A DNA stretch of 32,000 bases from Patescibacteria group bacterium (GTDB lineage Bacteria; Patescibacteriota; Patescibacteriia; 2-01-FULL-39-33): positions 60,001-92,000 of the forward strand of contig JBAZRV010000004.1 in assembly GCA_041662745.1 (NCBI GenBank). Direction: 5' to 3'. The translations under genes were made by a program, and so were the position numbers. The notes under the pieces were generated by a model that did not search any database, was not told the origin of the DNA, and was given only the letters and a program-made list of their open reading frames with translations. Of this stretch, positions 1 to 30,010 are shown piece after piece (positions within the stretch are counted from its first letter, which is position 1; every line of letters begins with the position of its first letter).

Positions 1-1552
1 CCACGGCAAATTCCGGCTTGCCCATTATGTCTTTGGCCCAATCACTGGTCTGCCCGCCTTTTTTCTCTATGGCTTTAATGAAATCATCTTTGGTTTTTAG
101 TCCGGTGCCCAGTTCAATGGTTTTCTGTTTGATTCGGCCCTCGGGGAATTCAGTGTAAATATGTTCCAGGTTTGAGGGCAATAGTTTGAAGATGTTGAGG
201 AATAATTCGCCGACATAGACCTTAATGTCTTTTTCTTGTTTAAGCGCTTGCTCTAATTCCTGTTTGTTGTGGATAATCTGGCTCGGTTTGCAGTCAAAAA
301 TTACGAGCATGTCGGCATTCTTGTCCCGTTGACCCCGCAGTTCTTTGATGCGCGGATCTTTCTGGTAGCCAAAGCCCTCAATCGGCGAATTTATTTCGTA
401 AAGGAAGATGAGATCTTCTTTGTCTAATGACTTACCTTGCCGGATTTTCTTATCCAGAGCGGTTAAGCGGCTCATGTCCTGCGATTTCTTCTCGTAGCTC
501 TCATGTCCGGGCAGAGTTCTGGCTTTATCTTGGGCGATATCCACTAAAGCCGGTTCAAGATTTTGTTCCGCATTAATACCCCCAATTTCAGCTATTTGAT
601 CATTCTGCATTCTGATGGCGATGCGGGGAATCTTAGGTTGGCCTTGATCATTATTGCTGTAATACACATAAAAATCGCCTTCTTTTAATTGCGCCTGGGC
701 CGTGCTTTCTCCGGCCGTGCACCAGCCCGTGCCGTGGCCTTGGAGTGACTGGCATAGTTTTTGGTAGTCGTCGCCTTGATCGTATTTGACCCATTGGCCC
801 TGGATATTTTCCTTTTGCTCTTGGCTGGCGGGGGTAACTTTTTCAATGGCATAGGCGTAAAGCTTGGCGAAATTGGCGCCTTCCAGTATTTTGCCCAGTT
901 CTGCATTGATTGGCGAAGACGCGTTATCCACACCATGCCGTTTATTGACAATATCCAAAACCAAAGCCAAGGCCTCGCGGTTAAGATCGGGAAAAACGCC
1001 CCGAGTGAATTGGCTGCGTTTTTTGAATTCGTGCTTCTGCTTATCAAATTCAGCCAGGCCAGTCACGGAACGAAGGGCAAAATACTTGAGCCAAGTCGGA
1101 TACATGGCATCTTCCGACGACAGGTAATCAAACCAGTTGCTTAAGCCGGCCTCCTGGTCTTTGACCGCGGATTCCAAAATCTGCTCCTGCATTTCCCGGG
1201 TTACTTCAATATCGCCATGGCCTTGTTCGCGGGCGACGCGCTTGTCCAAATCAAAAAAATTACCCGGTAAATCGTCAATGGTTTTATGGCGCAAGGGAAT
1301 GGCCGAATCTAGGATTTTATTCTTAAGGTAATCCAACCTGAATTCCCTAAGATTTTGGCCCTTGAGATATTCCTCTTCCGGCGTAGAAAAAATTTCCTCC
1401 AAACGATCCAGGTAAGTGCCAAGTCGGCCTTCCGGAGTATTAGCGACTTTTTCGCCGACACGGATTTTTTTGCGCGCTGAAGCAGACGCCACTTCTGGAG
1501 TTTTTTGCAGATCTTCAAATTTATTATGGAGAAAACGTTCTGGGGAGGGCAT
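1..1552 (-). CDS. Hypothetical protein, partial (3' end beyond the window edge; at least 517 aa)
   Basis: Absent from the ORF track because it has no in-window stop. Manual translation of the minus strand from the ATG (complement of 1550-1552) gives an open frame down to position 2: MPSPERFLHNKFEDLQKTPEV...QGHGTGWCTAGESTAQAQLKEGDFYVYYS...PRIAIRMQNDQIAEIGG... Track ORFs 685-1047(-) and 761-1144(+) are off-frame shadows. The start lies 6 nt after the glyQS stop. I do not recognise the family with confidence. Confidence 0.7.
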   Translation of the reverse strand, partial: MPSPERFLHNKFEDLQKTPEVASASARKKIRVGEKVANTPEGRLGTYLDRLEEIFSTPEEEYLKGQNLREFRLDYLKNKILDSAIPLRHKTIDDLPGNFFDLDKRVAREQGHGDIEVTREMQEQILESAVKDQEAGLSNWFDYLSSEDAMYPTWLKYFALRSVTGLAEFDKQKHEFKKRSQFTRGVFPDLNREALALVLDIVNKRHGVDNASSPINAELGKILEGANFAKLYAYAIEKVTPASQEQKENIQGQWVKYDQGDDYQKLCQSLQGHGTGWCTAGESTAQAQLKEGDFYVYYSNNDQGQPKIPRIAIRMQNDQIAEIGGINAEQNLEPALVDIAQDKARTLPGHESYEKKSQDMSRLTALDKKIRQGKSLDKEDLIFLYEINSPIEGFGYQKDPRIKELRGQRDKNADMLVIFDCKPSQIIHNKQELEQALKQEKDIKVYVGELFLNIFKLLPSNLEHIYTEFPEGRIKQKTIELGTGLKTKDDFIKAIEKKGGQTSDWAKDIMGKPEFAV

Positions 1553-1558
1553 ACGGAT

Positions 1559-2938
1559 TTAACTAATTTTCTCTTTAACCCACTCCTTCAACTCCTCTAC
1601 TTTAATAAGTTCTTGCTTCATGGTGTCGCGGTTACGGACAGTAACAGTACCTTTTTCCAAAGTGTCAAAATCAACCGTAATGCAGTAAGGCGTGCCGATT
1701 TCATCCTGCCGGCGATAGCGTTTGCCCACATTGCCGTTATCGTCAAACTCGCATTTGAATTCGCTTTTCAGGCTAGCAAAAATCTCCCGCGCCTTGGCCA
1801 CCAATTCCGACTTATTCTTAAGCAAGGGAAAAATCGCCACCTTAACCGGCGCGATCCTGGCCGGAAACTTCAACACCACGCGGACATCATCGCCTTCAAG
1901 TTTTTCTTCGGTATAAGCGGCAGAGAGAGCTACGAGCACTGAGCGATCCAAACCGAAAGTCGGTTCCAAAACATGAGGCAAATATTTCCGGCCGGCCTGC
2001 TGATCAAAATATTCCAAATTAGTGCCGGAAAATTTCTGATGCTGACTCAAGTCAAAATCACCGCGATGCGCCAGCCCGAACAACTCGGCGAAACCAAAAG
2101 GAAAGTTATATTCAATGTCCACGGTTTTGCGGGAGTAATGCGACAATTTCTCTTTGGGATGCTCGTAATGCTTCAAATCCTCTTTTTTGGCTCCCAGCTC
2201 AAGAGCAAATTCCTCCTGAGCCTTCAGCCACCCCTTGAACAACGGTTCCCATCTCTCTTCGGGAGAAATAAAATATTCTATTTCCATCTGCTCAAATTCG
2301 CGCACGCGAAAGATAAAATTACGCGCCACAATCTCATTGCGAAAGGCCTTGCCTATTTGGCCGATGCCAAACGGCACCTTCACTCGGCAAGAATCAACCA
2401 CATTCTTAAAGTCGGAAAAGATTGCGCCGGCCGTTTCCGGACGCAAGTAAACCGGCTCATCAATGCCGTTCATTTCCGTCTTAAACATCATATTGAAAAA
2501 TCGGGCTTCGGTCCAATCTTTCTTGCCGCAATTGGGACAGTTGATCTTTTCTTGGATGACCTTGGTCATTTCCTCCAGCTTGCCCTCTAAATCCTCCCCC
2601 AGGACTTCGCTGATTAAATTATCGGCCCGATAACGCATCTGGCAATTCTTGCAATCAACCATAGCGTCGTTAAAACCGCTCAAATGGCCGGACGCCTCCC
2701 AAAGCTTGGGGTGCAGCAGGATGGGCCCGTCAATACCCACCATATCCTCGCGTTCGGTAATAAATATTTTCCACCACAAAGCCTTAATGTTATTCTTAAG
2801 TTCCACGCCGTATGGCCCATAGGAGTAAGCGTTGGAAAAACCGCCGTAAATTTCGCACGCCGGAAAAATAAATCCCTTGCGCTTGCATAAAGACACGATT
2901 TTCTCCATTTTGTCGTTCTGTTGCTGTTTATTAGCCAT
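1559..2938 (-). CDS. glyQS: Glycine--tRNA ligase (homodimeric class II GlyQS type)
   Basis: 459-aa ORF with an ATG start. Sequence is typical of GlyRS (FIFPACEIYGG...YGPYGVELKNNI, RPETAGAIF, FRNEI, C-terminal anticodon-binding domain ...GKRYRRQDEIGTPYCITVD). Confidence 0.93.
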   Translation of the reverse strand: MANKQQQNDKMEKIVSLCKRKGFIFPACEIYGGFSNAYSYGPYGVELKNNIKALWWKIFITEREDMVGIDGPILLHPKLWEASGHLSGFNDAMVDCKNCQMRYRADNLISEVLGEDLEGKLEEMTKVIQEKINCPNCGKKDWTEARFFNMMFKTEMNGIDEPVYLRPETAGAIFSDFKNVVDSCRVKVPFGIGQIGKAFRNEIVARNFIFRVREFEQMEIEYFISPEERWEPLFKGWLKAQEEFALELGAKKEDLKHYEHPKEKLSHYSRKTVDIEYNFPFGFAELFGLAHRGDFDLSQHQKFSGTNLEYFDQQAGRKYLPHVLEPTFGLDRSVLVALSAAYTEEKLEGDDVRVVLKFPARIAPVKVAIFPLLKNKSELVAKAREIFASLKSEFKCEFDDNGNVGKRYRRQDEIGTPYCITVDFDTLEKGTVTVRNRDTMKQELIKVEELKEWVKEKIS

Positions 2939-4373: not shown

Positions 4374-5411
4374 TTATTTGATTCTCCGATGCTCCAGGTA
4401 ATCACCCAAGCCCACGCCGATCGCCGTGGCTACCGGTACGGATAGTATGATACCCATTAATCCGCTTAATTTGAAGCCGATCATCATGACGATGATAGTA
4501 ATGACCGGATTAAGTCCGATCGCCTTGCGCATGATTTGCGGAGTAATAAAATAATTTTCTGCCTGCTGGACAATGATAAATAAAATCAAAACCGCTAATC
4601 CTAGCCAAGGCGACTGGGTAAAACCGATAAACACCGCCGGGACGCCGGCCATGAAGGGGCCGAGGTAAGGAATGATTTCGGTTAGGCCGGCGATAAGCGC
4701 CAACACCCAGGCATACTTTACCCCCAAAACCAATAATCCGACTAAAGACATGATAAAAATAATCAAACACAACAGAAGCTGGCCGCGCAACCATAAGCCG
4801 ATCTTCTCCTGCATGCGATCAATGAGATGATCAAAATAATCGCGGTGCTTGGCGGGCAAAAGATTTCGAGCCACTGTTTTCATTTGCCGATCATAAACCG
4901 CCAGATAGAAAGTCATGACCAGTATCACCAATAAGGAAAAAATTCCGCCAATAAAAGAAACAAGTCCGCCGACTAAGTTTGTCGCCAACGAGGTCAAGCC
5001 GGCCTGCATGGCCGATAAAGCGTCTTCAATATTCTGCTTCAAGCCGTGGCTTTGAGAAAATGACTCTACATTACTCCAGCCGGAAGAAATATTCTGCCAA
5101 TAAGTCGGAAAATCATCGGATAAATTTTTGATTTCCGAACTGATGGGATTAACCAACAACAAGAAGGCCATAAACACTGCCCATAATCCGATCAAATAAA
5201 TTATCAGGATCCCCAAAGAGCGCGGGACTTTATTTTTGGCAAACCAATCAACCCAGGGCTTGATGGCGGAAGCCAAGATTAAAGAAACGAAAACCATTAA
5301 TAGAATATCGCGGATATAAAATAGCAAAAGCAATGCCAAACAGACGACCGCTATTTTTAATAATGTGGACAGTTTAAAATCAATGCTGATTTTTTTGTTG
5401 CTGACTGGCAT
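4374..5411 (-). CDS. AI-2E family transporter (PerM/YhhT-like permease)
   Basis: Polytopic membrane protein whose C-terminal region is typical of the AI-2E family (...LTEIIPYLGPFMAGVPAVFIGF...ENYFITPQIM...NPVITIIVMMIG...). The start is assigned to ATG 5411 (MPVSNKK...). The track start at 5468 would overlap the smpB promoter region. Confidence 0.8.
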   Translation of the reverse strand: MPVSNKKISIDFKLSTLLKIAVVCLALLLLFYIRDILLMVFVSLILASAIKPWVDWFAKNKVPRSLGILIIYLIGLWAVFMAFLLLVNPISSEIKNLSDDFPTYWQNISSGWSNVESFSQSHGLKQNIEDALSAMQAGLTSLATNLVGGLVSFIGGIFSLLVILVMTFYLAVYDRQMKTVARNLLPAKHRDYFDHLIDRMQEKIGLWLRGQLLLCLIIFIMSLVGLLVLGVKYAWVLALIAGLTEIIPYLGPFMAGVPAVFIGFTQSPWLGLAVLILFIIVQQAENYFITPQIMRKAIGLNPVITIIVMMIGFKLSGLMGIILSVPVATAIGVGLGDYLEHRRIK

Positions 5412-5965: not shown

Positions 5966-6349
5966 GGGGATGTTTTGCTTTGATAGAGATAATGTTTTCC
6001 TATTAGCAAACCGAGCATGACGGCAAACTCGTTAATCCGCCGTCACAGGCAAAATGCCAAAAACATCTTAGCTAAGGTCCAATCTGCTTTTAGCAGCCTG
6101 GCTTTGGCTCCTGTTCTCGCTTAATATCGAGAACCATCGCCGCGCCCATTCCCGGTAAGCGCCAAGCGGTGTTATATTATCGGGATCGCCAATGGCGTCG
6201 CCAGAGCGCTTTTGGTCAAACTTTTCTGGACCGCTTAAGAATTTTTTGCCGCTTTTTCAGTTCTTAAGTCAAAATTTAAAACGGCTAAGTTTGTATCACT
6301 TTAGGGGATAATTTATTTCTAGACAGGGGCTCATTACCCCTCATCTCCA
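5966..6349 (+). ncRNA. ssrA: tmRNA (transfer-messenger RNA), one-piece
   Basis: 5' GGGGATG (5966-5972) pairs with CATCTCC (6342-6348), giving a 7-bp acceptor stem with the G3:U70 alanine identity pair and discriminator A6349. T-arm AGGGG/CCCCT is at 6324-6341. A candidate tag frame runs from GCC 6056 to the TAA at 6122-6124 and encodes AKNILAKVQSAFSSLALAPVLA. The position directly after smpB fits. CCA is not encoded. Confidence 0.85.
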
Positions 6350-6356
6350 CATACAC

Positions 6357-7884: not shown

Positions 7885-7913
7885 TTGACATTCCTCAAAT
7901 AATACTATATAAT
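7885..7913 (+). promoter_or_regulatory. Perfect consensus sigma70 promoter upstream of rpsF
   Basis: TTGACA (7885-7890), 17-nt spacer, TATAAT (7908-7913), preceded by an AT-rich tract. The predicted TSS is near 7920, about 160 nt before the rpsF ATG. Confidence 0.8.
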
Positions 7914-8079: not shown

Positions 8080-8553
8080 ATGAACAATTACGAATTGCTC
8101 TACATCATCCCCAACCAGTACACTGATGATGAGGCCGCCAAGATCAAAGCCAAAATAGATGACATGCTTAAGGGCTTTGGCGCCATTATCGGACTGGAAG
8201 AAAACTTAGGCAAGAAAAAATTAGCCTATCCCATCAACCGCGTTGCCCATGGCTATTATTTACTAAACGAGTTTGAACTGGAAGACGCCGCCAAAATCAA
8301 AGAAATTAACAATTTCCTGCGCTTGGACAAAGAAATCCTGCGCGCGCAAATCGTCAGCAAAAAAAAGCTGACTCCCAAAGAAATTGAAAAACAAAAAAAG
8401 CGCGAGCAAGCGGCGGAAGCCAGACGCGCCGCCGGCGAAAAAAACGAGGAAAAAGCCAAACCGGCAGAAGCCAAAAAAGAAAGCAAGAAGGTGGACATTA
8501 AGAATTTGGACGAAAAATTGGATGAGATTTTAAAAACCGACGATTTAGTGTAA
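8080..8553 (+). CDS. rpsF: 30S ribosomal protein S6, with K/E-rich C-terminal extension
   Basis: MNNYELLYIIPNQYTDDEA...LGKKKLAYPINRVAHGYYLL is typical S6. About 60 extra C-terminal residues are rich in K/E/A. Conserved rpsF-ssb-rpsR order. Confidence 0.88.
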   Translation: MNNYELLYIIPNQYTDDEAAKIKAKIDDMLKGFGAIIGLEENLGKKKLAYPINRVAHGYYLLNEFELEDAAKIKEINNFLRLDKEILRAQIVSKKKLTPKEIEKQKKREQAAEARRAAGEKNEEKAKPAEAKKESKKVDIKNLDEKLDEILKTDDLV

Positions 8554-8560
8554 ACTTATA

Positions 8561-8667
8561 CCAGTTGATTAGTGATTAGCAGTTAGTTAGTAGTTGAATT
8601 AAACTATCAACTGATAACTGGCTGAATTAAACTATCAACTGACAACTATTTAACTAACAACTAACTA
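8561..8667 (+). repeat. GT-rich arm / AC-rich arm hairpin element with an internal 25-nt tandem repeat (rpsF-ssb spacer)
   Basis: The GT-rich arm is CCAGTTGATTAGTGATTAGCAGTTAGTTAGTAGTTGA (8561-8597). Hairpin 8580-8624 has AGTTGA 8592-8597 paired with TCAACT 8607-8612, plus 11 of 12 further pairs including 3 G:U. TGAATTAAACTATCAACTGA(T/C)AACT occurs in tandem at 8595-8619 and 8623-8647. The words TTAGTTAGTAGTT and AACTATCAACT are shared with the element at 9484-9535. Confidence 0.7.
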
Positions 8668-8673
8668 AATAGT

Positions 8674-9150
8674 ATGAACCTAAACAAAGCCATTATCATT
8701 GGCAATCTCACCGCCAATCCCGAAGTCAAAAAAACCGCTTCGGGCCAAACCATTGCCAATTTCTCCATCGCCACCAACCGCGTCTGGACCAACCAGCAAG
8801 GCGTCAAACAAGAGCAAGCTGAATTTCATTCTATTGTCGCTTTCGGGCGTCTGGCTGAAATCGTCGGCCAATACCTGGCCAAAGGCCGCTTATGCATGGT
8901 AGAGGGTCGCATCCAAACCCGCAACTGGGTGGATACCAACAACGTCAAGCATTGGAAAACGGAGATTGTCGCCGAAAACATCCAGCTGGGACCGCGCAGC
9001 GCCGCTTCCGCTAACGGCAGTTACAACCAAGAGAGACCCGGCAATTCCGGCTATGACGCCGCTCCGGCTTACGAGGTTGAACAAGTAACCGCCGCTCCCG
9101 TTGCCAACGACAATGAAGAAGAAATAAAAGTTGAAGACATTCCCTTCTAA
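8674..9150 (+). CDS. ssb: Single-stranded DNA-binding protein
   Basis: MNLNKAIIIGNLTANPEVKKTASGQTIANFSIATNR... forms the OB fold. A Gly/Pro/Asn-rich linker and the acidic tip EEEIKVEDIPF follow. Confidence 0.93.
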   Translation: MNLNKAIIIGNLTANPEVKKTASGQTIANFSIATNRVWTNQQGVKQEQAEFHSIVAFGRLAEIVGQYLAKGRLCMVEGRIQTRNWVDTNNVKHWKTEIVAENIQLGPRSAASANGSYNQERPGNSGYDAAPAYEVEQVTAAPVANDNEEEIKVEDIPF

Positions 9151-23363: not shown

Positions 23364-25073
23364 ATGGACACGAAACTCTTGCGTCTGATCATACCCGCCT
23401 CTCCCCCGTTTAATCCTTATAAACGATTTTATGGCCGTACGACCGCCCTGGGAACGATCCTAACCGCCTCGGCGGCTAATAAAATACCGGGCTGGGAAGT
23501 TGAAGTGATTGACGAAAACAACTGCCATAATCTTCCTGCTTGGCTTAAGCTAACGGCAGACGGCCGGATTGATCATGGATTGCTGCAACAAGAACGGCCG
23601 GCCCAAATTGTCGCTCTCTGCGCTTCACTTAGTTCAACTATGCCTCGTGTCTTTGAGTTGGCTGGGATTTACCAATCATGCGGAGCGCTTACGGTGGCGG
23701 GGGGCTATCATGCAAGCGCTCTGCCGGAAGAAGCGCTTGATCATCATCTGGATATCATAATCATGAACGACGGAGAAAAAACTATTAGGCAAGTCATAAA
23801 TACTTATGACTCTTTATGCCAGGATGTTAATTATGGCTTGCATCTGACCTGCCGAGCGCAGGGGGCCTATAAAAACAACTGCTCGTCCCATTTTTATGAA
23901 TTGGAAGAAAAAATAAAAAACTATTGGCTTAAAGTGGACGGCATCGCTTTCCGGCATATTGATAAAACCATAATTAATCCGTCCGCCGATCAATCGCACA
24001 ATTGCCGATCGGCCTTATTGCCTAATTTCGGTTTGTTACGCTATGGCAAATTGGAAGTCTATCCGATTAATTGGCGCCGCGGCTGCTCGCTTAAATGCGA
24101 ATTCTGCGCCGTCAGAGAAAAACCCGGCAAGGAGTCAGCCCTTGATCTGTTTAAGGTTGTCCGGCATTGCCACGAAAAATTCGGCGCTGATAAATTTTTT
24201 ATCGTTGACGATCGCTTCGGCGGTAATCTGATAAACAAGACAGAACGCGCTGAACTGATCTCGGCCTTGAAACTGCTTATCGCCTACCAGAAAAAAATCA
24301 ACCGGCATTTTAGCTTTAGCGCTCAACTGGAACTCAACGCTTCCGGCGATACCGAGCTCCTCTTTTTGCTGCGCCAAGCGGGGGTAGATACCGTACGCCT
24401 AAGCTACGATTCGTCAATTATTGAGGCTCCAGAGTTTAATGATGGGACCTACCATCGGACGACTAAAGGCCAGACCATAAAATGGCGCACCATGGTTCAT
24501 TACACTCGGCAATGGCGCCAGGCGGGATTCCTTGTTCATGGCATGTTTATCTTTAACTATCCAAAAAAAACAGAGGCGATTGCCGATTGGCCTGATGGGG
24601 CGGAACGGCAGGGCCGGTTAAGCGCCGAAACAAAAAAGATTATTGAGCTTGTGGCCGAAGCCGAACAAGCTTACGGCTTAAGCAAATTGCCGACAATAAA
24701 AAACCGAGTCCGCGCCGTCAAGGAATTCATCAAATGGGCGGGAATAAACACAGTCCAAGTGGCTTTGGCCGTACCCTCGCCGGGGACTGCCTTGCGCGAC
24801 CGATTGGAAAAATCCGGACAGCTTTTCCCCGTAACAGCAATCGGCTGGGAATATTACGACGGGCAATTCCCGCTCTACCAACCGAGCAACTGCGAAGCGG
24901 AAGAAATGTGGCAAGGAGCCCAGGACATCATGTCCGGCTTTTACGGTTTGAGAAACTTTCTCCGCCAAGCTTCTTTCAACGGCTGGCCGTTCCGGCGAAA
25001 CCGGCTGAATGAATCCGTACGCCGTGATTTTTCAGCTAAACTAAAAAGAGCCAGAGCGGCTCTTAATCAGTAA
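23364..25073 (+). CDS. B12-binding-domain radical SAM protein (class B rSAM), function unknown
   Basis: 569 aa. An N-terminal Rossmann-like B12-binding-type domain (LRLIIPASPP...VAGGYHASALPEEAL) is followed by the rSAM cluster motif CSLKCEFC (CX3CX2C). SD AAAGGAG lies 7 nt upstream. It has its own promoter and terminator. No SPASM-type Cys cluster is present. Confidence 0.85.
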   Translation: MDTKLLRLIIPASPPFNPYKRFYGRTTALGTILTASAANKIPGWEVEVIDENNCHNLPAWLKLTADGRIDHGLLQQERPAQIVALCASLSSTMPRVFELAGIYQSCGALTVAGGYHASALPEEALDHHLDIIIMNDGEKTIRQVINTYDSLCQDVNYGLHLTCRAQGAYKNNCSSHFYELEEKIKNYWLKVDGIAFRHIDKTIINPSADQSHNCRSALLPNFGLLRYGKLEVYPINWRRGCSLKCEFCAVREKPGKESALDLFKVVRHCHEKFGADKFFIVDDRFGGNLINKTERAELISALKLLIAYQKKINRHFSFSAQLELNASGDTELLFLLRQAGVDTVRLSYDSSIIEAPEFNDGTYHRTTKGQTIKWRTMVHYTRQWRQAGFLVHGMFIFNYPKKTEAIADWPDGAERQGRLSAETKKIIELVAEAEQAYGLSKLPTIKNRVRAVKEFIKWAGINTVQVALAVPSPGTALRDRLEKSGQLFPVTAIGWEYYDGQFPLYQPSNCEAEEMWQGAQDIMSGFYGLRNFLRQASFNGWPFRRNRLNESVRRDFSAKLKRARAALNQ

Positions 25074-25080
25074 TCGCACT

Positions 25081-25389
25081 TTAGACCGTTCGTTTTAATG
25101 AACGGTTTTTATTTTGCCAAAATTCTTCAATCTGTTCGGCGACGATCGCCGGCTTGGCAGTATAAACAAACAGGAACTGCCGGGCGTTAACGCCGCGAAT
25201 CATTAACTTTAATCCCGCCTCAATCGCGGTTATTTTCATTCGACGCGGACCAGGCTCAATGGATTTTATTTCTCCGGTGACGATTTTTGCAACCAGCGGG
25301 TGGCGGTACAGGAATTTCACCAATTTATCCGCTTCGCCGATAACCGTTGAATGGCCCGAAGCGACTTTCTTTCCGGCGATATGAGGCAT
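25081..25389 (-). CDS. Small conserved hypothetical protein (102 aa)
   Basis: ATG start. The sequence MPHIAGKKVASGHSTVIGEADKLVKFL...KIVTGEIKSIEPGPRRMKITAIEAGLKLMIRGVNARQFLFVY looks like a real globular fold. It reminds me of DUF2103-type small proteins, but that is from memory and unverified. It is the last gene of the ruvA-mur operon. Confidence 0.6.
   Translation of the reverse strand: MPHIAGKKVASGHSTVIGEADKLVKFLYRHPLVAKIVTGEIKSIEPGPRRMKITAIEAGLKLMIRGVNARQFLFVYTAKPAIVAEQIEEFWQNKNRSLKRTV
25085..25115 (+). terminator. Intrinsic terminator after the radical SAM gene
   Basis: Stem ACCGTTC (25085-25091) / GAACGGT (25100-25106) is followed by TTTTTATTTT. It overlaps the last codons of the convergent 25081-25389 ORF. 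Confidence 0.8.
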
Positions 25390-26760: not shown

Positions 26761-27342
26761 TTACCTTCCTAAAATCTTTAACGCTTCTTTGATTTTCTCG
26801 CCCGCATCCGGCGACTGGCATTGGCCAAGCGCCTCGCGCGCCTGACCGGTTGAATAACCCAAAGACACCAGGGCCTCCAAAGCATCGCCGAAACCGTCAT
26901 TCCAAGAGGCGGCGACTCCAGCCATGTTCCCGCCCAATTTATCCTTAAGACCTATTACGATCTTTTCCGCCGTCTTGGGTCCGATGCCGGAAACCTTGGC
27001 TAAAATCTCGTGATTGCCGCTCTGCACGGCGGTTACGATATCGTCAATCTTGGCTTTGCGCAAAATATCCAAAGCGCTTCTCGGGCCGATGCCGGATAAA
27101 GATAATAATAATTCAAAAAATTCCAATTCTTCTTGGGTGGCAAAACCGTACAAATCCAATACGCTTTCGGCTACTTGCGTATAAATAAAAACTTCCGCCG
27201 TCTGCCCGATAGCAAAATCGTTCAATAATCGATCCAAAACATAAACTTTGTAGCCGACTCCGCCGACATCAATCACAACAAAATTTTCCTTTTTCAGTTG
27301 CTGGGATTTTAAGCGGATTTGGCCCTTAAGATAAGCAATCAT
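26761..27342 (-). CDS. ruvA: Holliday junction DNA helicase subunit RuvA
   Basis: The track ORF starts at a TTG (27354). I prefer ATG 27342, giving MIAYLKGQIRLK..., the canonical RuvA N-terminus. HhH motifs (LLSLSGIGPRSA, LAKVSGIGPKTAEKI) and domain III are present. Confidence 0.92.
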   Translation of the reverse strand: MIAYLKGQIRLKSQQLKKENFVVIDVGGVGYKVYVLDRLLNDFAIGQTAEVFIYTQVAESVLDLYGFATQEELEFFELLLSLSGIGPRSALDILRKAKIDDIVTAVQSGNHEILAKVSGIGPKTAEKIVIGLKDKLGGNMAGVAASWNDGFGDALEALVSLGYSTGQAREALGQCQSPDAGEKIKEALKILGR

Positions 27343-27347
27343 AAAGC

Positions 27348-27376
27348 TTGACAAAAATTGTTTACCTCACTATAAT
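27348..27376 (+). promoter_or_regulatory. Perfect consensus sigma70 promoter for the Cys-rich mini-operon
   Basis: TTGACA (27348-27353), 17-nt spacer, TATAAT (27371-27376). Confidence 0.8.
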
Positions 27377-27400
27377 ACAGCAAAACAGAACATTTTACAA
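27372..27400 (-). promoter_or_regulatory. Candidate ruvA promoter, overlapping the plus-strand promoter back-to-back
   Basis: The minus strand reads TTGTAA (27400-27395), 17-nt spacer, TATTAT (27377-27372). Its -10 overlaps the plus-strand TATAAT. Confidence 0.5.
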
Positions 27401-27433
27401 CTCGCTCGAACCAGACAATAAAGGAGGTTGCTT

Positions 27434-27643
27434 ATGCCTGATACCTGCCGGCATGTCCCGGAATTCGCGACAAGAGACGAGAAGGTTTGCCGATTGTGCG
27501 GCAAGGAGCTTGGAAAACATGAACCGCTTACGCCGGAAAAAATAACCGCATTGCTGGGAGCGGAAATGCCGGCGCAAAAAAGATTCGTCATTACCGGCGG
27601 CCTCGGATGCTTCCTATTGTCTCTGCTGAAAAAAACAGGCTGA
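27434..27643 (+). CDS. 69-aa zinc-ribbon-like micro-protein with C-terminal hydrophobic anchor
   Basis: SD AAGGAGG (27421-27427) lies 6 nt before the ATG. The product is MPDTCRHVPEFATRDEKVCRLCGKELGKHEPLTPEKITALLGAEMPAQKRFVITGGLGCFLLSLLKKTG, with CxH...CxxC ligands and a C-terminal TM-like segment. Confidence 0.6.
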   Translation: MPDTCRHVPEFATRDEKVCRLCGKELGKHEPLTPEKITALLGAEMPAQKRFVITGGLGCFLLSLLKKTG

Positions 27644-27663
27644 TAAAGTGGGGGGAGAATCAT

Positions 27664-27864
27664 ATGCCTCAAGGCAAAGAAGGGCAACCACATCAGCACC
27701 ATTGGGAGGCGGTTGATTTTGATAATATGGCGGATGACCGCATTAAATGCGCGGTCTGCGGATTAACTAAAGTTTGCGAACACAACGCCGGTGAATTCAT
27801 TGAGAATCCCAGCGGCTGCTGCTTTTGCAGGCTCTGTGGCCGCTTCCGCGGATTGGCCCATTGA
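27664..27864 (+). CDS. 66-aa Cys/His-rich micro-protein, paralogous motif to the preceding gene
   Basis: SD GGGGGAG (27651-27657) lies 6 nt before the ATG. The product is MPQGKEGQPHQHHWEAVDFDNMADDRIKCAVCGLTKVCEHNAGEFIENPSGCCFCRLCGRFRGLAH. It shares C-x-H-x(2,3)-EF-x(n)-CRLCG-x3-G-x(1,2)-H with the upstream protein. Confidence 0.6.
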   Translation: MPQGKEGQPHQHHWEAVDFDNMADDRIKCAVCGLTKVCEHNAGEFIENPSGCCFCRLCGRFRGLAH

Positions 27865-27886
27865 TCGGCCAGACAAAAAGTACAAC

Positions 27887-27922
27887 AAAAGCTGTCGAAA
27901 ATTTTCGACAGCTTTTTATTTT
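27887..27922. terminator. Bidirectional intrinsic terminator (Cys-rich operon / NIF3-like gene)
   Basis: A perfect 12-bp palindromic stem AGCTGTCGAAAA/TTTTCGACAGCT (27890-27913) is flanked by an A run upstream and TTTTTATTTTT downstream. Confidence 0.85.
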
Positions 27923-27924
27923 TC

Positions 27925-28860
27925 CTATCGCTTTACTCTGATTAGTCCGGAAAATGCTGCGACTTCCACGCCCTGCCCTTCCAATTCATCCAAAAACAGA
28001 TTAACGCCCAGGGAATCGGAAGACATATGCCCGGCAATCACCACATTGACATGATGCTTCTGCGCCTCTTTCTTATGTTCTTCGCTCATATGCATGCCGA
28101 CAATCGTACCGATGCCGGCGTGCGCCATCTTTTCATAAATATCCTTGGAATTGGAAGTGCCGCCGGTGATTTCCGTCAAAACAATTTTACCGCAATAGTT
28201 GTCCTCGCTGCCGGCAAAAATTTTCGGTCCGGTTTTCTTCTTGGCCGCCAATTGATATTCGGGAATTTCTTTCAGCAATTTCATCAATTCGCCGACCGTC
28301 TCCAATTCCACCGCTTCCACCCTGTCTTTCAAGAATTTAGCCGCCAAATTATCGCAAGGGGTATGCAGGCAGACTAAATTAATATCCAACAATCGCGCCG
28401 CATCCACCGGACGCTGATGGTTGGCCGGCGAAACGCCTCGCGCCACTTCAGACACCCTTTCTTTAGTGATGGCCTGCGCCACATTAATTGGCACGCCGTA
28501 CTGCGCCAGCACCTCGGCCTGCAGGTGCATGACATCGCCCAGATCGGCCAGGGCTTCGCCTTCCGGATGATGGGCGATAACCGTATCATAACCCAACTGC
28601 TTGGCCAAGATCAACTCCGGCGTTTCAATATCAATGCCACACAGGATTTTTTTCACCTCCCGGCCGTTATCGTACAGAATCCTGCTATCGGCATAAGGAT
28701 TAACGAGTTTCTCCGCATCAAAATCTTCTTTCTGTTCCTCGTTCAGCTTATCAAACTTTTCCTTAGTCTTGGCTAAGTTTTTTCTCACTCTCTCGCCGCC
28801 GCGCAAATCCGCCTCAATCCCCAGTTTGACAGCCAGATTATAAATGTCTTTAAGCAACAT
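27925..28860 (-). CDS. NIF3-like (YbgI/YqfO family) dinuclear metal centre protein
   Basis: Track ORF trimmed to ATG 28860 (MLLKDIYNLAV...). It has the IAHHPEG motif, and C-terminal VVIAGHMSSDSLG aligns with the GHxxxE-type motif of the family. The family assignment is from memory. Confidence 0.65.
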   Translation of the reverse strand: MLLKDIYNLAVKLGIEADLRGGERVRKNLAKTKEKFDKLNEEQKEDFDAEKLVNPYADSRILYDNGREVKKILCGIDIETPELILAKQLGYDTVIAHHPEGEALADLGDVMHLQAEVLAQYGVPINVAQAITKERVSEVARGVSPANHQRPVDAARLLDINLVCLHTPCDNLAAKFLKDRVEAVELETVGELMKLLKEIPEYQLAAKKKTGPKIFAGSEDNYCGKIVLTEITGGTSNSKDIYEKMAHAGIGTIVGMHMSEEHKKEAQKHHVNVVIAGHMSSDSLGVNLFLDELEGQGVEVAAFSGLIRVKR

Positions 28861-28912
28861 AAAATTAAGATTAAAATTATTAATTAATCTAACCATTAAT
28901 TGGAAAAAAAGT

Positions 28913-28966: not shown

Positions 28967-30010
28967 TTATATTTCCTTGCCCATGATCACTTGGGGCAAT
29001 TCACGGAAATCCTGCACCACTCTTTCCAGCTTGCTGGTTTCTTCGTTGCCCACCAAGCGATCAAACAGCACTGTCCAGCCGGCCCACTGAAAGGTGGTAA
29101 TCAGTCCGGTAACTGCAAAGATTATTAGCAATATGGCGATCAAGCAAACAAGGGAAATAATCATTTTTATCCAAAAAGCTAAAAATGGAAAATATAACGG
29201 GATCACCACGACCGAGACGGCAACAAAAACCAAAACCAAGAAGGTAACAATAAAGGCGGCAACCATATAAGCCAAAAACATAAACAAAGCCATCTCCAAA
29301 GAAATCAGCCAATTGGCCCTGAATAACTCCCAAGCGGAAACCAAAGCGGTTTTCATTTTTTGCTTCTTAAGCAAAATGAAAAAAATCTGATACTTGATTA
29401 CAAAAGAAATTATCAAAGCCAAAATCACAAAAATCAAAAAAGACAAAATATAAATCACTACGCCCCAGGCGCCCAGGCCGGAAATCAAGCCTGCTTGCCA
29501 GCCCAATAAAGAGAACAAGGCAAACAAAACCAGTTTCAGCAAAACCACTGCGCCAAAAACCGGCCAAAAGTTGGCCCAGGCAAACTGCAAGGCCTCTTTC
29601 AGTAAGGGTTTCTTGTTGCGGTTATGCAAGGCAATATTGCGGATAAGCCCGGATTGGCATAAAACAGCAACGGCGATGACGGCAAAAATTATAATCAAAG
29701 AAATTAACAGGATCAGCAGGGCAACACCCAAAAGAAGAGCGCTGGACGGCCAAGCCGCCTGAAAAGCCGACCAACTCAATGCGGCGCCGCCGGCCACAGC
29801 CGTGGCCGCGCCCTCCTGGAAACCGCTGACCACTGAGCTGACGATATTGGTTGAGGAATTATTGAAAAAAGCGCGGGAGATTATTTCATATTCGCCGCCG
29901 GACGAAATCAAAACGGCAACAAGTCCCAGCCACCAAAGCTTTTTATAGCTCCAGGTTATTTCCCAGGCCCGTTTCAAGACAGGACGATAAAGATAATTGG
30001 TTGTTTGCAT
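28967..30010 (-). CDS. Polytopic membrane protein, hypothetical
   Basis: 347 aa with an ATG start and at least 6 long hydrophobic segments. An extended -10, TGCTATAAT (complement of 30038-30046), lies 27 nt upstream. No family recognised with confidence. Confidence 0.7.
   Translation of the reverse strand: MQTTNYLYRPVLKRAWEITWSYKKLWWLGLVAVLISSGGEYEIISRAFFNNSSTNIVSSVVSGFQEGAATAVAGGAALSWSAFQAAWPSSALLLGVALLILLISLIIIFAVIAVAVLCQSGLIRNIALHNRNKKPLLKEALQFAWANFWPVFGAVVLLKLVLFALFSLLGWQAGLISGLGAWGVVIYILSFLIFVILALIISFVIKYQIFFILLKKQKMKTALVSAWELFRANWLISLEMALFMFLAYMVAAFIVTFLVLVFVAVSVVVIPLYFPFLAFWIKMIISLVCLIAILLIIFAVTGLITTFQWAGWTVLFDRLVGNEETSKLERVVQDFRELPQVIMGKEI

Follow-up and report, generated by a model that had tools for sequence, protein, structure and literature searches.

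A stretch of 32,000 nt from a Patescibacteria group bacterium (the whole of which is called the window below) carries on its plus strand a compact unit of two short genes, A and B, that were annotated by NCBI as hypothetical proteins (WC668_03565 and WC668_03570). A and B are real protein-coding genes under purifying selection and form one transcription unit, and sequence comparison places their products in a clade-restricted, modular and previously undescribed family of zinc-knuckle micro-proteins, a new family of a familiar protein kind. Our best explanation, which we hold with moderate confidence, is that the unit is a strongly promoted two-gene operon for two cooperating micro-proteins of this family, tied to the promoter region of ruvA. 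The family is built from a repeated knuckle of about 25 residues, C-x-H-x(11-16)-C-x2-C-G, with the character of a zinc-ribbon-like beta-hairpin. B would be soluble, with two knuckles in tandem, two predicted zinc sites and a conserved G-L-A-H at its C-terminus, while A would join an optional knuckle to a conserved helix motif (L-x-P-E-x-I-x-x-LLGAE) and a short hydrophobic GG-x-G tail. Made from a single transcript, the two would probably enter one complex, given that other lineages make them as a fused polypeptide. Such a complex would more likely be a small zinc-stabilised binding or adaptor module than an enzyme, and the tail of A would either keep the complex at the membrane or pack on B. 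Expression would run back-to-back with that of ruvA from overlapping divergent promoters. The features of the unit are as follows (related loci carry L numbers and homologous proteins P numbers).

27348 to 27376, plus strand: sigma-70-type promoter of the unit, TTGACA, 17-nt spacer, TATAAT, a 12/12 match to the consensus
27372 to 27400, minus strand: putative ruvA promoter, TTGTAA, 17-nt spacer, TATTAT, a 9/12 match
27387 to 27590, plus strand: strain-variable cassette comprising the 5' untranslated region (UTR) and the N-terminal two-thirds of A, replaced in L005 (5829-5984)
27423 to 27427, plus strand: Shine-Dalgarno sequence of gene A, GGAGG, read from the sequence, 6 nt from the ATG at 27434 and kept in L010
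27434 to 27643, plus strand: gene A, 69 aa, MPDTC...KKTG (MFA6228239.1), supported by the L010 orthologue and by the ratio of non-synonymous to synonymous differences (pN/pS)
27446 to 27502, plus strand: knuckle of A, C5-R-H7-x11-C19-x2-C22-G, a predicted CHCC zinc site
27527 to 27565, plus strand: motif of A, LTPEKITALLGAE, consensus L-x-P-x-E-x-x-x-LLGAE, with LLGAE invariant in 5/5 A-like proteins
27584 to 27628, plus strand: C-terminal hydrophobic segment of A, FVITGGLGCFLLSLL, with KR/KK flanks, the best-conserved part of A
27650 to 27657, plus strand: Shine-Dalgarno sequence of gene B, GGGGGGAG, read from the sequence, 6 nt from the ATG at 27664; GGGAGG in L010
27664 to 27864, plus strand: gene B, 66 aa, MPQGK...GLAH (MFA6228240.1), supported by the L010 orthologue, homologues and the ratio of non-synonymous to synonymous substitution rates (dN/dS)
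27691 to 27762, plus strand: knuckle 1 of B, H10-Q-H12-x16-C29-x2-C32-G, with H12, C29 and C32 invariant
27775 to 27840, plus strand: knuckle 2 of B, C38-E-H40-x14-C55-x2-C58-G, its ligands invariant in eight sequences
27887 to 27916, both strands: terminator hairpin, a perfect palindrome with a T-run on each strand

The coding status of A and B is seen most directly in L010, a second Candidatus Buchananbacteria species (RuvA 90-91% identical), which has the entire unit at the equivalent position with its promoter hexamers, Shine-Dalgarno sequences, both open reading frames (ORFs) and the hairpin. The preliminary description of this DNA had allowed that neither ORF might be conserved in relatives; both are, at 68% (A) and 65% (B) identity in L010, and every cysteine and key histidine is kept, including all seven cysteines of B. 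The dN/dS values against L010 are 0.30 for A and 0.26 for B (RuvA, 0.06), and B against L005 gives 0.11. The sense frame of A has the lowest pN/pS among the six frames (0.39, Fisher p = 2e-4), and more distant A-like genes were found in L023 and L028. Two genes, each with a Shine-Dalgarno sequence at 6 nt and each starting with MP, are thus present as first described. The 85-aa JGI model of B (start at 27607) was rejected as an over-extension because a stop just upstream in L010 allows no extension there.

Relatives were recovered solely via an exhaustive HMMER search and synteny. Exhaustive phmmer with B against 1.84 billion representatives gave 11 matches, seven of them convincing (P0009, P0010, P0011, P0013, P0014, P0016 and P0018); the long matches P0017 (C2H2) and P0019 (BED) were set aside, since they match through zinc-finger repeats of a generic kind. 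When 5.8 billion proteins were searched by word index with A, B and a 5-sequence A-family profile, the inputs alone came back, a metagenome scan with B returned the identical sequence and nothing further, and a scan of viral contigs gave no relative. Pfam and NCBIfam searches with A, B and eight homologues yielded nothing at or near the curated cut-offs (best E-values 0.03-0.3). There was no match in PADLOC and nothing significant in a sequence search of the PDB, where a B-box match (2dq5, E = 0.44) was taken as noise, and a literature search on the family found nothing, all of which agrees with the earlier statement that the pair corresponds to no described family.

The order of the pair is repeated in relatives, since an A-like gene lies directly 5' of a B-like gene in L023, L027 and L028, the two being separated by 3 nt or overlapping by 4-8 nt. 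Moreover, there are three fusion homologues in which A-like portions stand N-terminal to the B domain. P0016 consists of A-like knuckles, the segment LSPEETAELLGSE (the counterpart of the A motif LTPEKITALLGAE) and the B domain, and hhalign aligned its LSPEETAELLGSE region with the A profile at E = 3e-4. P0013, from L024, joins an acidic A-like N-terminus to the B domain, and P0011 and P0016 contain four knuckles each. Gene fusion is classical evidence of physical or functional partnership, and the fusions in other lineages therefore indicate that A and B most likely act together.

The architecture of the family is variable around this pair. L023 has a second B-like gene after B (552-857, plus strand), L029 has a 40-aa single-knuckle ORF after B (1451-1573, plus strand), and in L027 a 121-aa two-knuckle protein (23-388, plus strand) precedes a four-knuckle protein. 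In L009 (4728-4919, minus strand) and L008 (337-540, minus strand), with RuvA about 70% identical, the position is held by a lone acidic ORF of 63-67 aa (P0007 and P0008), which combines a PLTxxEAIxLLxPDE motif with a hydrophobic stretch and an end rich in proline, lacks cysteine, and is accompanied by no B gene. These two loci seem to have lost B recently, given that in the related L024 this same ORF is fused to a B domain as P0013. The equivalence of the L008/L009 ORFs to A is taken from their position and from the P0013 fusion, the hhalign comparison of knuckle-type A with them being not significant (E = 0.24).

The element common to the family is the C-x-H-x(11-16)-C-x2-C-G knuckle, a repeat of which A has one copy and B has two. 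From it both proteins are predicted to bind zinc, A at one CHCC site and B at two sites. In the alignment of eight B sequences H12, C29, C32, C38, H40, G51, C55, C58, G59 and G63 are invariant. Position 10 is His in the window and its sister species and Cys in P0010, P0011, P0013, P0014, P0016 and P0018. An additional cysteine at position 52/53 and the C-terminal GLAH lie near knuckle 2. The CHCC-type pattern that the preliminary description had aligned between A and B by eye is therefore conserved in its ligands across the family. The description of B needs revision in one respect: the C-terminal knuckle is present, but B does not have a single knuckle, since its His-rich N-terminus and extra CxxC together make up knuckle 1. 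The residues EF and the exact CRLCG, which had been listed as shared features, turned out to be lineage-specific (the family consensus is Cx[LIV]CG). The EF after C-x-H is ES in both A (4699-4908, minus strand) and B (4465-4677, minus strand) of L010, and F/F occurs again in L023; this parallel change, in a comparison of four lineages, could reflect contact between the proteins or gene conversion. A regular expression for the knuckle, run over six frames of 222 kb of related DNA, gave no match elsewhere. An AlphaFold2 model of B from the 8-sequence alignment is all-beta (predicted local distance difference test score, pLDDT, 76), with six short strands and the CxxC pairs at hairpin turns, and is compatible with two zinc-ribbon-like units. 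Foldseek of this model against the PDB and viral models gave nothing significant, with no match at E < 0.1.

In A the ligands C5, H7, C19 and C22 are invariant in the window, L010, L023 and L028. Yet a near-identical strain from the same sample (L005, sample ERZ27249449) lacks the knuckle. L005 and the window show 99.64% identity across 5828 nt of flank, after which about 200 nt cannot be aligned, and identity then resumes at 97.2% (2.8% divergence) through the rest of the unit. The L005 version of A has 57 aa and no knuckle, retains LLGAE and the hydrophobic tail while differing at many synonymous sites, and looks like an import by recombination. A diversity-generating retroelement was considered as the source of the difference and rejected, as the segment is unalignable and contains indels rather than adenine-specific substitutions. 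It follows from L005 that the knuckle of A is optional and that the C-terminal half is the conserved core. As for the C-terminal anchor proposed earlier, a conserved hydrophobic stretch is indeed there, but FVITGGLGCFLLSLL has only 15 residues, with a Kyte-Doolittle core mean of 2.2 and a 19-mer value of 1.27 that falls short of the usual 19-mer criterion of 1.6, and the Hessa sum is borderline (-0.85 in the window; -0.85 to +2.2 across orthologues). The fused homologue P0016 has no hydrophobic segment. The tail may thus be a marginal membrane anchor or, alternatively, may pack against B.

The association of the unit with ruvA is consistent across the clade. The unit is divergent from ruvA in all seven readable contexts (window, L005, L010/L021/L022, L024, L026, L028 and L029), the genes beyond it differ among them, and RuvA identities go down to 58-70%. 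This speaks against the unit having been inserted recently, as the word "inserted" in the preliminary description suggested. Since the position is kept across lineages, the unit is ancestral to the clade and has a control region in common with ruvA. The true start of ruvA (26761-27354, minus strand) is probably the ATG at 27342, which lies 6 nt from the beginning of the unit's -35 hexamer. The -10 hexamers of the unit and of the putative ruvA promoter overlap on opposite strands, so that RNA polymerase could not occupy both simultaneously. A minus-strand -35-like sequence, TTGTCA/TTGTAA (read as TTTGACAAC/TTTTACAAC on the plus strand), lies within the 5' UTR of the unit and is kept in 9/9 related intergenic regions (window, L005, L008, L009, L010, L024, L026, L028 and L029). 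A -10-like hexamer follows it at 17 nt, and the element is probably the ruvA promoter. A "CGAAC" in the 5' UTR was also considered as a LexA box and discarded, the second half-site not being found in the sequence.

The signals that bound the unit are strong. The claim of a perfect promoter was confirmed at 12 of 12 positions, both hexamers are kept in L010, L005 and L028, and perfect TTGACA-17-TATAAT sites occur twice in the 32 kb against none expected from shuffles. The second such site (7885-7913) lies 5' of the genes for ribosomal protein S6 and SSB (8080-9150). The palindrome after the genes, also as first described, folds with -19.2 kcal/mol (z-score -6.45) and is a bidirectional intrinsic terminator that serves the unit and the convergent NIF3 gene. 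Its 31-nt core AAAAGCTGTCGAAAATTTTCGACAGCTTTTT is identical in the window (27887-27917), L010 (4415-4444) and L023 (868-898) and so exceeds its genes in conservation, the A proteins of these three lineages being 54-68% identical. The sequences flanking the hairpin in L023 are unrelated, and the palindrome appears to travel together with the unit.

The unit stands on the plus strand between minus-strand ruvA and the NIF3/DUF34 gene (27925-28896), and other minus-strand housekeeping genes (Mur ligase, FtsH, RpoB/C, FtsK and RecA) lie on either side, in accordance with the setting reported initially. Its G+C content is near that of the flanks, and the DNA of the window is present identically in four other assemblies. 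Further away, a tmRNA gene was identified at 5966-6352 on the plus strand (Rfam RF00023, 110.5 bits, E = 1.3e-42). A B12-binding radical-SAM protein (569 aa, plus strand) and a DUF2103 "predicted metal-binding" protein (102 aa) are encoded at 23364-25389, 2-4 kb from the unit. The position of the radical-SAM gene is kept in L001, L005, L021, L022 and L024 and that of the DUF2103 gene in the same loci except L024, and nothing was found to tie either gene to A or B. A multi-pass membrane protein of 347 aa without a Pfam family (28967-30010, minus strand) lies beside FtsH in all related loci, and its gene directly adjoins the unit in L024 and L009, both of which have no NIF3 gene.

Several observations weigh against the explanation that we prefer. 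The pairwise similarity of A and B is weak. A Smith-Waterman alignment does recover the one made by eye (CRH-VPEF...CRLCG with CEHNAGEF...CRLCG), but its score is matched by 80-211 of 5000 whole-sequence shuffles (p ~0.02) and by 10-26 of 5000 domain-only shuffles, and BLASTP of A against B aligns nothing beyond the CRLCG nonapeptide. We therefore call A and B paralogous in the sense that their sequences have a repeat module in common, on the basis of the family pattern and not of the pairwise score. The ligands of B may pair within each unit, or C29, C32, C38 and H40 could form one compact site, and in view of the missing fold match the term "zinc-ribbon-like" draws on the ligand pattern and the predicted strands. 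The tail of A does not reach the length of a standard transmembrane helix, and in L010 it contains a proline. The module is partly dispensable, as L005 does without the knuckle of A, L008 and L009 without B, and L029 without A. Lastly, the adjacency to ruvA could be the inherited synteny of one narrow clade, and ruvA occurs without the unit in L006 and L007.

These last points also bear on a related explanation, in which A and B together, or just B, form a small regulator that binds nucleic acid and acts on the shared divergent promoter region (controlling itself and ruvA) or together with RuvA on DNA. We consider it unlikely, even as it accounts for the divergent arrangement with ruvA amid changing outer neighbours, for the overlapping -10 hexamers and for the conserved minus-strand -35-like motif inside the 5' UTR of the unit. 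Several B homologues also have Lys-rich N-terminal tails (e.g., MAKKKTVKK and MPQNKKKQGRKGK), and DNA binding is known for CHC2-type zinc ribbons, among them that of DnaG. But B of the window is not basic, no DNA-binding family was matched in Pfam or NCBIfam, no palindromic operator was found beyond the promoter hexamers, ruvA stands without the unit in L006 and L007, and the linkage could be plain synteny. Distinctly unlikely in our judgement is a bolder form of the operon explanation, namely a highly expressed, modular zinc-knuckle system whose face-to-face, overlapping promoters couple it mechanistically to ruvA and which may also act directly on recombination, with a swappable N-terminal cassette in A that is polymorphic between co-existing strains. 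If true, it would mean a new small-protein regulator of recombination or repair, or a strain-specific recognition module, in the ultra-small Patescibacteria.

It appears very unlikely that a toxin-antitoxin system or another kind of conflict module is encoded here, with diversifying pressure on two small co-transcribed genes. Two tiny adjacent genes behind a very strong promoter, a cassette swapped between 99.6% identical strains of one sample, a patchy distribution and a plastic architecture would all suit such a module. On the other side, PADLOC recognised nothing, PHROGs gave weak matches of unknown function, and viral contigs hold no relatives. The chromosomal position is stable, mobile-element features are absent and the G+C content does not depart from that of the flanks. 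A toxin and its antidote would be strange partners in natural fusions such as those of A and B, which likewise argue against the toxin-immunity pair that had been suggested at the outset.

Still more doubtful is the possibility that A is a precursor resembling those of bacteriocins or of ribosomally synthesised and post-translationally modified peptides (RiPPs), with a double-glycine-type leader cut before E44 to free a cationic hydrophobic tail of 25 residues, and with B as helper or immunity protein. By eye, the L-[ST]-P-E-x-[IT]-x-x-L-L-G-[AS] of A resembles the leader consensus LSXXELXXIXGG of class II bacteriocins (PMC1538908). Behind the motif comes a short, cationic and hydrophobic segment, the part of A with the highest conservation; the N-terminal region varies, and at a distance of 2.3 kb there is the B12-binding radical-SAM gene, whose synteny is conserved. 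Against this, leader and bacteriocin models of NCBIfam and Pfam gave no match even at E <= 10, and no C39-peptidase ATP-binding cassette (ABC) transporter was found in the 32 kb or in the syntenic loci; the ORFs of at least 500 aa in the 32 kb are those of FtsK, RpoB, RpoC, the radical-SAM protein and FtsH, with no others. In P0016 and P0013 the motif is internal, and behind it stands the B domain and not a hydrophobic core; LLQP/ILDP replaces LLGA in P0007, P0008 and P0013, and three opposite-strand genes separate the radical-SAM gene from the unit.

It is extremely improbable that the functional product is not A and B and is instead the antisense 110-aa ORF (27370-27702), which the preliminary description had named as a possible real gene, or a non-coding RNA: the antisense frame is open in the window, in L005 and (minus its start codon) in L010, and its pN/pS is lowered to 0.51, but this is a weaker mirror of the sense signal, L010 offers no start codon giving at least 30 aa, the ORF has neither a Shine-Dalgarno sequence nor homologues, the sense frames hold their Cys/His columns, starts and Shine-Dalgarno sequences down to ~35-50% identity and are fused in frame in other lineages, and Rfam assigned no family to the region (a single match at E = 0.59, far under the gathering score).

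Micro-proteins are systematically under-annotated, and two orphan "hypothetical proteins" now make up a defined family, which can be recognised by its diagnostic C-x-H...C-x2-C-G repeat, includes proteins in which A and B are naturally fused and has ruvA as its constant partner in the genome. In the reduced genomes of Patescibacteria, a unit with a promoter of ribosomal-operon strength is unlikely to be idle. The comparison with L005 offers a clean case of strain-level cassette replacement within a micro-protein gene. A functional link to ruvA would suggest that recombination is under lineage-specific control in organisms not yet culturable alone; if the link is not functional, the family would be one more among the small zinc-binding ones.

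Among known systems, the generic zinc ribbons (Zn_Ribbon_1, Zn_ribbon_3 and Trm112p-like) are alike in the pairing of ligands within each unit, in the CxxC at a predicted hairpin turn and in the tiny, predicted all-beta fold, and their function is often adaptor-like or one of nucleic-acid or protein binding. The four conserved Cys/His ligands arranged as two knuckles, which characterise these ribbons, are found in A and B. In the family described here, however, the first knuckle is C-x-H and not CxxC, the units occur in tandem, and the His is followed by a conserved aromatic residue and the CxxC by a Gly. The DnaG-type CHC2 finger (PF01807) has the same Cys-His-Cys-Cys order, a similar spacing to the CxxC and a zinc-ribbon fold. 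The likeness is one of pattern alone, with C-x2-H-x17-C-x2-C in DnaG against C-x-H-x11-16-C-x2-C here; PF01807 gave no match at E <= 10, and the primase context is absent. ZAS anti-sigma factors (zf-HC2), which are often membrane-tethered, recall A in its N-terminal Cys/His motif and C-terminal hydrophobic segment, a likeness that corresponds to the anti-factor pair suggested in the preliminary description. But the H-x3-C-x2-C of ZAS proteins is absent from A and B, the knuckle of A is dispensable in L005 and its tail marginal; the Pfam model zf-HC2 was not matched, and the neighbourhood contains no sigma-factor gene. Double-glycine leaders share with A the overlay of the motif on their consensus, by eye, and a short cationic hydrophobic segment after it, and differ in that A matches no leader model, is accompanied by no C39-ABC exporter and has its motif internal in the fused homologues. 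Weak recurrent matches to phrog_7696 and phrog_6094 over the B domain were obtained for four family members (E 1e-3 to 0.5); these are phage proteins of unknown function, and the matches are sub-threshold, with B of the window itself unmatched. A likeness in repeat structure concerns P0015 (464 aa) and P0012 (1001 aa), long proteins with signal peptides and 5-7 tandem repeats of the form [C/A]-x-H-x-[YFW]-G-x-W...C-x2-C-G-x-T-x-T, of which P0015 is a putative secreted metalloprotease with an HExxH (HEIGH) motif. They differ from B in their length, signal peptides and source organisms and in a first Cys that is often Ala, and they are likewise without a Pfam family. Without gaps, the P0015 repeat can be brought into register with knuckle 1 and knuckle 2 of B (E = 2e-6 to 3e-7 in pairwise BLASTP), which makes homology between these repeats and the knuckles of B plausible, and the knuckle may be a more widespread undescribed repeat.

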